Positions 10,796 through 18,926 of a stretch of DNA of 64,000 nucleotides are shown one piece after another. Each line of letters starts with the position of its first letter. Positions within the stretch are counted from its first letter, which is position 1. This DNA is from Mustelus asterias. Lineage: Eukaryota. A program made the position numbers and the translations under genes. The DNA lies in NCBI RefSeq assembly GCF_964213995.1, contig NW_027590139.1:124001-188000 (forward strand), in the 5' to 3' direction. The notes beneath the pieces were generated by a model. That model saw nothing but the letters and a program-made list of their open reading frames with translations. It had not been told where the DNA came from and did no database searches.

Positions 10796-12130
10796 GCCAA
10801 TTCATCCAATCAGCTCACAGACCCTTTGATCTCCAATTCATTACGTCAGAGCAGCTTCAGCGAATCAGTCAAGTTGATTTTTAGAGAGACGAGAATTCGC
10901 TACAATATTGGCCCCTTACACAGCGTGGGAGGTGATGGCCGTGAGGGGAAACAGTTAATGTTGTTGTAACAATGTCGGAAGTTCCAATTCGATAGTTTCA
11001 ATATTTTGCATATCTCTTTTCATATTATATCAAATTGAAAACATACACAACTAAGAACCAATGTCCCAAAATACCTTTTTTTGATTTTGGGATGCCTCGC
11101 ATTTAACATCAGCAGGGTTCTTATCAAACATCACAGCAGCGGGTGGGGGCGGTGGAGGGGGAAGGGGTATGGTTCCATAGATTGATTTTCCAGATTCAAT
11201 ATCATCGAGGAGATTCTGAACAGGCGTTGGAGTGTGGAGACTCGGGGATTTTCACAGTAACTTAATTTCAGTGTGAATGTAAGCCTACTTGTGACTAATA
11301 AATAAACTTTATACTTGCCTCAGAATGTTCCTGGAAACATCTCTTTTCTCAGGAAATCCATCTCCGGCCTCAGAATTTATATTTATCTAAATTAACTGCA
11401 TCTAACACTCGTAGGCAATGAGTTTCTGGTTCTTAGTGCTCGCTGCGGAAAAATGTTCCTTCCAAATCTTCTCTGCGCCCGCCTTGCCAAAAATCTTTAA
11501 ATTTGCCTCTTCCCCCTCAAAACTTATCCTAATTTAGTCCACCTCGATTAAATCACTCCTCAATCTTCTTCGCTCAAATGGAGAATAATCGCAGGGTCAT
11601 AAACCTCGCTAATTTTAACTTTTCTAAACGAAACTTACTTCAAAGAAATTCCTCAATGGAATTTAACTAGAATTTCTCAACTTTTGAAAAAACATTTCGA
11701 TGGAACTTGAGTATTTTGTGAACTTCTTTCTATGAAAGATATTTAAATTAAATTCCTTCGCAGAGTTTTACAAATTTTCATCAACTTATTAGAAACTATT
11801 TTCACCATTTTCAAAAATGTAAGATTTCCACGTTATTTATCTAGAAATTCCCAACTTTTTAAAAGATAGCTTAAAATACTTGTTCCAAATAATTTCACGA
11901 AAATTCGTAATTTAAAGAAAATAATTTAAACATACTCAATGAAAGTTTATCAGTGGAATCTTACTTAAAATGGCCAACTTTCTTTTGAAAATTAATGACC
12001 TAAGATAAATTTCTTCATCGAAGGTGACTGGATTGAGTAAACATTTGTCTGAATTGGTTTAAAGTTACTGAAAATACATTTTTTCATCGAAACTGAAATG
12101 GAGTTTACGAACTATTTTAAAAGTTTACAC

Positions 12131-12203
12131 CGAGCCAGCCAGGAGTCGAACCTGGAATCTTCTAATCCGTAGTCAGACGCGTTATCCATTGCGCCACTGG
12201 CCC
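12131..12203 (-). tRNA. trnR-ACG: tRNA-Arg(ACG), near-canonical
   Basis: GGGCCAGTGGCGCAATGGATAACGCGTCTGACTACGGATTAGAAGATTCCAGGTTCGACTCCTGGCTGGCTCG, 73 nt. One C>T gives a G.U pair in the anticodon stem; TTTT lies about 9 nt downstream. Confidence 0.93.
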
Positions 12204-12439
12204 ACATATGGGGAATTTGCAACATTTGCTACATATTGGCCAGACGGTTCAAAGCCGGGCAGAAACCAATACGTTTAAGTGAGGAAAGGTTGCTTAATTC
12301 ATATTTTATTTACTGCCATCCCTAATGGCCCTTGAATTCAGTCAATCTGCTGTGTTGGAATTCAGCCTGCTTCTCTGCGTTTAATTTCCAGCGACAGTAA
12401 CACGACTCAACCCCTAACTACTCCCTCTGTGAATCCACT

Positions 12440-17518: not shown

Positions 17519-18064
17519 ATGTTTCTGATCTTCCTGGCGGCGCTCTTGCACGGTAAGCACTGGGTAACGTACATCAAGCCAGATAAACACATTAGATGGT
17601 AATATAATTAACCATCACAATTATCGATGTGAGGGGTGAATGGGGGTGGGGGAGGTGGGGGTGGGAGTGGGGGAGGTGGGGGTGGGGGGTGGGGGGGGGG
17701 AGGGGCGGGTGCTGCAGAAACGATCGCAGACACAAACATTAACTCTTGATATTTCATTCCTCTACCTTCACAGGCGGACTGTGCGCAGATCCAGTAGCAG
17801 TCATCGCTGCCAATAACCGCATCAGAAGGGGATTCAGTGCAGTTGGGTTGTGAATATACAGACAAGGGTATGTACAGCATGCAATGGTATCAGCAGGAAC
17901 CGACACAACCAGCGACATGGATTATTACCAAAGCATTAACAGTGAAGGAAGATGAAGTTTCGGGTCGATATCTGGCGGCTTCTGACGCGTCTAAACAGAA
18001 CGGTTACCTCAATATAAGCACCCTCAGTGTGGAGTACGGGGCGGTCTATTACTGTGCAGTGAGG
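17519..18064 (+). pseudogene. TCR alpha-like V segment with 2-nt frameshift (leader 17519-17552, V exon 17774-18064)
   Basis: Leader MFLIFLAALLHG|gtaag. Exon GLCADPV-(g)-QSSLPITASEGDSVQLGCEY...WYQQ...GAVYYCAVR. Leader frame and V frame differ at about 17797. Confidence 0.9.
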
Positions 18065-18103
18065 CACAGCGTTAGATTAAAGGTAAAACCCCGTACAAAA
18101 ACC
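18065..18103 (+). other. 23-RSS
   Basis: CACAGCG + 23 nt + ACAAAAACC. Confidence 0.95.
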
Positions 18104-18258
18104 TCAGCGAGTATTTACAGCTCCATTAAGTTTCCTCCTGCGCGAATGGTTTGACCCGGCTTCAAGAAGACAGTCATTTCTATTTAGGGTAGAGCCGACG
18201 GGATGATTGGATATCACCTGAAGACTCTGTCAGCAATAAGCCAATAAGCAGATGGTGT

Positions 18259-18766
18259 TGTGGTGAACCATCGTTGGTTCCCACTAGGTAGTACTGAGCC
18301 AGGGTCTGGCCAGTACGACGAGTCTGTATATATGTTGCTGTTGGGATTAGGGATGGGTTGTTCTATTTGTTACTGTTGGGGTTAGGGTTGGGCTGTTACA
18401 CCTGTATTATAGTTATTATGGTACATCCCAGTCGGGCTCCACCTCCTGGGAGAGGTATAAAGGTCACTGCTCTGCTTGGGACCCCTCAGTCTGGGATCGT
18501 GTACTATATATGGTAGCTTCGTTGTAATAGTAAATAAAAGCCTTTATTTCCTTGAGCATCTCAAGCCTCGTGAGTAATATCGCGCATCAATTTTATTTAC
18601 TATTAATTAAACTCTCGTCGTTAAAAAAAAGGAAAACGATACAGAGAGTATGGAACAAGTAGAACAACCCATCCCTAACCCCAACAGCAACATATATACA
18701 GACTCGTAGTACTGGCAAGACCCTGGCTCAGTACTACCTAGTGGGAACCAACGATGGTTCACCACA
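18259..18766 (+). mobile_element. LTR-derived fold-back element with 113-bp inverted termini and 5-bp TSD
   Basis: 18259-18371 is the reverse complement of 18654-18766 (about 4 mismatches). GGTGT flanks both ends (18254-58, 18767-71). TATAA at 18456, AATAAA at 18533, LTR-like end gcatCA at 18589. Confidence 0.85.
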
Positions 18767-18926
18767 GGTGTTATCTAATATTCTCTTAATTCTCGATCCA
18801 GTGATCTCAGCTCTTCCTCCCATTGATTCTGTAGGATGTGACATCCACTGCTCTCAGCTTTATCTCGTTCGATATTCTGCAACTTTCGGAGACACAAGTC
18901 TCGGGAATCCAGGAGCAGCAGCAGCG

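Follow-up and report, generated by a model that had tools for sequence, protein, structure and literature searches.

Structure of a 508-bp insert with two U3 ends

What kind of element begins with a complete LTR and closes on an inverted copy of the start of that same LTR? The question is raised by an insert of 508 bp (18259-18766; TG start, CA end, GGTGT on both sides) in the window, the whole 64,000-nucleotide stretch of Mustelus asterias DNA analysed here. A preliminary description made from the letters alone had proposed that a template switch created a DNA with two U3 ends, and had offered two outcomes, a one-off or the founder of a mobilised family. Our main reading, to which we assign a probability of roughly 80%, is that a Gypsy LTR with its leader carries a second, inverted U3 end, which a template switch in reverse transcription likely attached, that the integrase of the family likely inserted the product, and that the eight copies in the genome go back to a single insertion, multiplied when a V-gene region was duplicated. 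The parts of the insert and its nearest neighbour are as follows.

17774..18103, + strand: antigen-receptor V exon (V-set) with RSS; Pfam V-set match, context, and duplication together with the insert
18254..18258, + strand: left copy of the TSD, GGTGT; present as a single copy at 12 empty paralogous sites
18259..18589, + strand: complete 331-bp Gypsy LTR (U3-R-U5); boundaries equal those of family 5' and 3' LTRs
18456..18461, + strand: TATA box (TATAAA); 19/21 normal copies have TATAA at 130-134 nt from the LTR end
18486..18491, + strand: initiator-like motif with a predicted start at 18488; found in 14/21 normal copies at 98-102 nt from the LTR end
18525..18539, + strand: part of R that is the complement of the PBS and the predicted self-primer, with AATAAA at 18533-18538; inverted repeat, fold and covariation
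18591..18605, + strand: PBS, complementary to its own R segment and without a TGG start; inverted repeat and family comparison
18606..18658, + strand: leader followed by the opening codons of gag (ATG at 18650); 22 family 5' ends align collinearly
18654..18658, no strand: putative template-switch junction with imperfect microhomology, the letter of the LTR arm being kept; junction compared with the family
18654..18766, - strand: inverted copy of U3 positions 1-113, the second U3 end; arm alignment
18767..18771, + strand: right copy of the TSD, GGTGT; sequence and empty paralogous sites

The sequence and an arm alignment bore out the anatomy described beforehand, with inverted arms (18259-18371 and 18654-18766) of 113 nt each that are 96% complementary. 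The left 331 bp had been read as one complete LTR, and family 3' LTRs do stop where this segment stops; TATAA (18456) and AATAAA (18533) are both present. We compared 20 paralogues of the left flank (≥96% alike). Eight are filled with the insert and 12 are empty, running into the right flank with a single GGTGT, and the 5-bp TSD is therefore real and as clean as had been claimed. Contigs from public samples contain both insert-flank junctions in X1 and the right junction only in X2 and X4; the empty form (a 513-bp skip) is present in contigs of all three too. The count of about four arm mismatches stands for the window insert. Only the mismatch at LTR position 108 is common to 8/8 copies and the remaining three vary by copy, and the arms were therefore nearly identical at insertion. 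A perfect 15-nt inverted repeat (18525-18539 vs 18591-18605) had been overlooked; its fold has z = -4.4, and 0/200 shuffles were equally stable. The U3 also carries a tandem repeat with a unit of ~35 nt and G-tracts (window 18335-18392). Gain or loss of units is common, and the two LTRs or arms of one element often differ in this respect.

After ATGGA, the family 5' ends read GCAA in 21/22 and GTAA in 1/22. The parental gag starts ATG GAG CAA ATG (MEQM in the nearest relatives), and the MEQV start that had been expected of it is therefore a chimera created by the junction. The microhomology reported at the switch, aacaa(g/a)ta, exists as homology, but the match is imperfect (A-[G/A]-CAA).

The 3.68-Gb genome contains eight full-length matches to the window insert, all with identical flanks and sharing kilobases of surrounding DNA at 96-99%. 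A genome search with the junction pattern recovered the same eight copies and nothing else; copies with different TSDs, proposed beforehand as the mark of a mobilised family, were not seen in it. Eight copies with common flanks therefore represent a single insertion that segmental duplication has multiplied, and not a family. Some of those on small contigs may be haplotype duplicates.

The parent retrotransposon

The parent is an abundant Ty3/Gypsy LTR retrotransposon with direct 331-bp LTRs, as the preliminary description had anticipated. Its LTR start occurs 16,162 times in the genome. We traced 20 family 5' ends downstream, and 19 meet the start of a second direct LTR after the PPT, mostly 4.4 kb away. 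In all 21 same-strand LTR pairs drawn from the first matches on C1, the LTRs are direct, a PPT is present and the 5-bp TSD is exact. The coding domains of one parent copy, read unedited, follow the order PR-RT-RH-IN (Pfam), and the element is gag-PR-RT-RH-IN. The best solved relative of the parent RT is the Ty3 RT (E = 4e-50), and the gag has two CCHC knuckles. No Pfam match to a chromodomain was found after the integrase at E values up to 5 (one copy), and none is listed in 14/14 homologues. A DIRS-like element was rejected because the parent has direct LTRs, an integrase and TSDs.

The family also occurs in other arrangements. Three LTR starts lie on the same strand, spaced about 4.4 kb, at C1:25658720-25667504 (G000); the 5' part is duplicated, with an identical left flank, at C20:28447298-28457000; and at G000:C16:39538934-39539273 one member is inserted, with a 5-bp TSD, within the first 25 bases of another's 3' LTR.

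A primer-binding site complementary to its own R region

The PBS is a 15-nt stretch one base past the LTR and is complementary to LTR nt 267-281. None of the normal copies (n = 21) has a PBS with a TGG start. In 19 of these copies, which belong to varied subfamilies, the PBS is complementary to R of the 5' LTR over 13-15 nt, and in the remaining two the complement is 15 nt with the 3' LTR. The observed mean is 13.6, against 4.8 for cross pairs and 8.8 for the best of 10,000 shuffles; the shuffle value is no strict probability because related sequences share ancestry, although the variants are many. The PBS is thus not tRNA-like and covaries with its own R region across subfamilies, a pattern that points to self-priming of the Tf1 kind.

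PBS-LTR complementarity has been used as a signature for predicting self-priming (PMC6317226). In Tf1, for which self-priming is demonstrated, the primer is the first 11 nt of the RNA and RNase H cuts after the paired bases (PMC7175516). In our family, TATA and initiator motifs predict an RNA start ~37 nt upstream of the pairing segment, and the cut would likewise fall behind the paired bases. Five solo-LTR-like loci (L128, L133, L177, L252 and L136), with normal ends and TSDs, contain a small inverted piece of U5. In four of the five this piece runs exactly to LTR nt 282, where the cut is predicted. These four suggest that minus strong-stop DNA ends at nt 282.

A recurrent class of U3-U3 insertions

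U3-U3 insertions are a recurrent class, made independently and with a hotspot at the self-complementary PBS. We searched the genome for an LTR end plus PBS that has an inverted LTR start 60-300 nt further on. Two pattern searches gave 88 and 36 matches and reversed-pattern controls gave 0. In 115 of the matches the junction falls exactly at the PBS; the rest are the window element (7 copies) and 2 further gag junctions. The 115 PBS-junction loci were all retrieved and placed in classes, partly by hand. Two U3 ends with an exact 5-bp TSD are present in 79 (74 distinct sites), a one-mismatch TSD in 5, and both ends without a TSD in 4. Six continue into inverted PPT and pol, one (L165) halts 2 nt beyond the inverted end and joins pol, five have an opposite-strand copy across the junction (L244 being placed there by flanks common with L243), five are the solo LTRs with a small U5 inversion, and in 10 the left end was not located. 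Cross-paired flanks, used as a TSD control, match in 30/8742, and a length test (4-mer match in 0/80, 6-mer in 1/80) gives a TSD of 5 bp. The U3-U3 elements are uniform in length, near 613 bp. Measured against 12,428 LTR-end-plus-PBS anchors (anchor control 22), their frequency is about 0.7-1% of 5' LTRs, which is only rough because both anchors need an exact match and longer products fall outside the range.

The gag-type elements are, with their left and inverted parts, those of the window (400/113), C19 (408/105), C3 (773/113) and C16 (1485/103). Every gag-type junction occurs at one site only, and the three besides the window each have their own TSD (C19 AATTG, C3 CCAGG, C16 CCATG). Under unbiased patterns the arms of gag junctions measure 113, 105 and 149. 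All four fit a hotspot at U3 103-113, but two of the searches had been designed to find such arms and we do not claim one. Of 46 pattern matches, nine further ones were mapped over longer sequence; deletions of repeat units and interrupted LTRs account for most, and one (C16) was U3-U3. Two convergent LTR pairs on C1, considered as U3-U3 elements, turned out to be separate or nested elements. The choice offered beforehand between a one-off and a mobilised family therefore misses the actual case on both sides: no mobilised family was found, and the window element is the rarer gag-junction variant of a recurrent, independently made class. In the literature searched, which takes in few subscription journals and not Repbase, we found no description of a class of integrated U3-U3 LTR products.

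We assessed independence on 75 of 109 loci that have both ends, a TSD with ≤1 mismatch and a length of 480-660 bp, after removal of duplicates. Pairs with a common non-CpG left/right difference number 55, vs 55 in the opposite-direction control, and pairs with two such differences 1 vs 2. The class is spread over many LTR subfamilies, and its PBS letters are subfamily-specific. Median arm divergence is 1.4%, vs 0.8% between the 5' and 3' LTRs of 37 normal pairs (P = 0.006). One element has arms that derive from two subfamilies, with 20 differences. Signs of two source templates were detected in 3/75 elements vs 0/37 normal pairs (rank test not significant), and a nearest-neighbour test of the arms gave 26/75 vs 19/37. 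As only 3/75 elements have two-template signs, fold-back on self and priming on a second molecule are indistinguishable for most elements. One narrow search at the 3' LTR yielded no full copy with TIR ends and an integrase; its 3 matches were one nested insertion counted twice and one complex element with normal ends.

Proposed mechanism and alternatives

We propose that R nt 267-281 would pair with the PBS and that the RNA would be cut after nt 281. Because the element would prime itself, the plus-strand strong-stop DNA would end in a copy of the primer, and this end would therefore match R as well as it matches the proper acceptor. In ~1% of events the strong-stop DNA would prime on R and recopy U3; its template could be R of a second RNA's 3' LTR, another plus strand, or the strand itself. 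The double strand might arise by PPT-primed synthesis or by pairing with a second plus strand. A clean U3-U3 finish would come from PPT-primed copying and trimming at CA, or from the pairing of two folded plus strands, and the integrase would accept the two U3 ends. In the window element and three others, the same switch would have happened later, inside gag, by short imperfect homology to U3 nt 103-113.

Several loci resemble intermediates of this route. The six PBS-junction loci that run past the inverted U3 into inverted PPT and pol are joined by a gag-junction locus on C4. The template at these seven was therefore a plus-sense 3' LTR, probably that of a second RNA. In L258-L264 (e.g. G000:C22:26946000-26955900), which have a TSD, LTR plus PBS is followed by U3-PPT-pol in inverted orientation, after which the sequence switches to a normal 3' LTR again. 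The loci that retain the PPT all have a normal U5 end, and thus document the priming step and not the origin of the clean second U3 end. The opposite-strand loci may reflect synthesis back across the junction, and the stop of L165, 2 nt beyond the inverted end, is more in keeping with DNA than with RNA as the template. At the window junction, the weak homology and the retained arm letter make the polarity uncertain, and the direction of priming may be the reverse. The insert has the 5-bp TSD of the family, in agreement with the earlier claim that a DNA with two U3 ends was inserted, and exact ends with direct TSDs argue that the joints were made by integrase and not by chromosomal rearrangement. 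Products that lack the PPT and a 3' copy of R should not retrotranspose and are likely dead ends.

Another route to the same joints, which we consider improbable though the least so of the alternatives, is that two cDNAs each supplied one U3 end in a concerted integration and that their inner parts were then connected, at the R/PBS complement or at microhomology, through host repair or branch migration. A correct TSD would be expected, two fold-back hairpins could provide both strands, and the element with arms of two subfamilies, together with the arm divergence of 1.4% over the 0.8% of normal pairs, is in its favour, although age or sampling could explain the higher divergence. The loci with inverted PPT and the opposite-strand intermediates, however, place the junction within a single cDNA with normal ends, and the R/PBS complement is needed here too, so that this route overlaps with the template switch. 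Short inverted repeats promote chromosomal fold-back, and an integrated normal element could in principle have been rearranged if a replication fork had switched templates at the 15-nt inverted repeat and returned to the right flank at the terminal CA. L181 does resemble a simple flip of the U5 loop. Such an event would not be expected to stop at LTR base 1 and restart at the TSD, which happens exactly in 79 loci, or to leave the arm without inverted left-flank DNA behind it, as in those same 79; the exact ends largely refute this origin, and we regard it as the least probable of all.

Hardly more credible is that the mini-elements form a mobilised non-autonomous TIR family, MITE- or Ginger-like and moved by integrase. 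It would account for the many sites, the varied TSDs and the uniform length near 613 bp, and the TG..CA inverted ends are sized like the TIRs of Ginger (PMC2836005). Against it, the elements belong to many LTR subfamilies that differ in their PBS letters, and share asymmetries only at the control level; gag-type junctions are confined to single sites, and all multi-copy cases, including the 8/8 copies of the window junction, have common flanks. On these grounds we rejected mobilisation, and with it the suggestion that the window insert founded a family. A template switch in reverse transcription followed by integration remains our preferred reading.

Comparison with known systems

The result that would have spoken against the preliminary description, an ordinary MITE or Ginger element with no direct-LTR parent, did not materialise: the parent exists, and neither kind of element fits. 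Amplification of one unit at many sites, which characterises MITEs, was not detected by flanks, the shared-difference test or the TSD survey. TRIMs and solo LTRs are small non-coding LTR derivatives with 5-bp TSDs that have direct repeats, or one LTR with a U3 and a U5 end. The present elements are likewise small, non-coding and flanked by 5-bp TSDs, but have two U3 ends and no PPT. We found no transposase between the TIRs in the elements examined, and the window element is not a Ginger element. Ginger1 and Ginger2 have TG..CA inverted termini too, of 100-280 bp and read by a Gypsy-type integrase, with a sequence-biased 4-bp TSD (PMC2836005); here there is no internal transposase, the 5-bp TSD is unspecific and no sign of mobilisation was seen.

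Tf1/sushi elements are a close likeness, with a non-tRNA PBS complementary to an LTR segment, an RNA cut predicted where the duplex ends and a 5-bp TSD (PMC7175516, PMC5341516, PMC6317226, bioRxiv 10.1101/2022.12.06.519325). In our family, however, the pairing segment is 13-15 nt long, overlaps the poly(A) signal and lies ~37 nt past the predicted start instead of at the 5' end, and membership among the Tf1/sushi chromoviruses fails on the chromodomain, which was not detected. The parts of the Tf1/sushi literature consulted make no mention of integrated U3-U3 by-products. HIV-1 minus strong-stop DNA can self-prime in a comparable manner, its end pairing with a wrong self-complementary site and being extended into an inverted product (PMC6088434). 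That case concerns the minus strand and is a dead end in vitro, suppressed by nucleocapsid and not seen in endogenous reactions (PMC6088434), whereas here the plus strand would be involved and the germ line carries the products as insertions with TSDs. The CsRN1 clade is similar only in LTR start motif and length (PMC3601003); it has a tRNA-Trp PBS, a 4-bp TSD and a CHCC gag motif (PMC2582038), and the self-complementary PBS, 5-bp TSD and two CCHC knuckles found here argue against membership.

Implications

The single window element is an ordinary dead copy within a mechanistically informative recurrent class. One reverse-transcription error has left a fossil series in this genome, with finished products and several intermediates side by side, which provides sequence evidence for self-priming in a vertebrate Gypsy family and for the position of the RNA cut. 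Self-priming would carry a cost, about 1% of 5' LTRs becoming U3-U3 products, and acceptance of two U3 ends by a Gypsy integrase in vivo is indicated. In annotation, such elements would be mistaken for MITEs. We predict that Tf1/sushi-type families elsewhere carry U3-U3 elements and that tRNA-primed families do not.

Bao et al. considered the route from LTRs to TIRs unclear and suggested two LTRs incidentally in opposite orientation (PMC2836005); the class described here, in contrast, yields TIR-type ends in one event, and the gain of terminal inverted repeats by LTR elements becomes testable. We offer as a speculation, which we consider more doubtful than probable, that self-priming LTR retrotransposons routinely emit TIR-ended DNA for clean insertion by integrase. 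In the present chromodomain-less Gypsy lineage the agent would be an undescribed internal self-primer that overlaps the poly(A) signal, and the process would supply the missing link, in one step, between Gypsy LTR ends and TIR ends of the Ginger type. An integrase gene could lie within longer switch products, one of which already covers 1.5 kb of coding sequence.

Genomic setting

The RSS of the neighbouring V exon (18065-18103) consists of a heptamer, a 23-bp spacer and a nonamer, and the insert lies ~155 bp downstream of it. The exon, which may be TCR-like judging by its motifs, has an in-frame stop at codon 8 when read from the likely splice acceptor. Elsewhere in the window, ARAGORN called a tRNA-Arg-like gene at 12130-12204 on the - strand.
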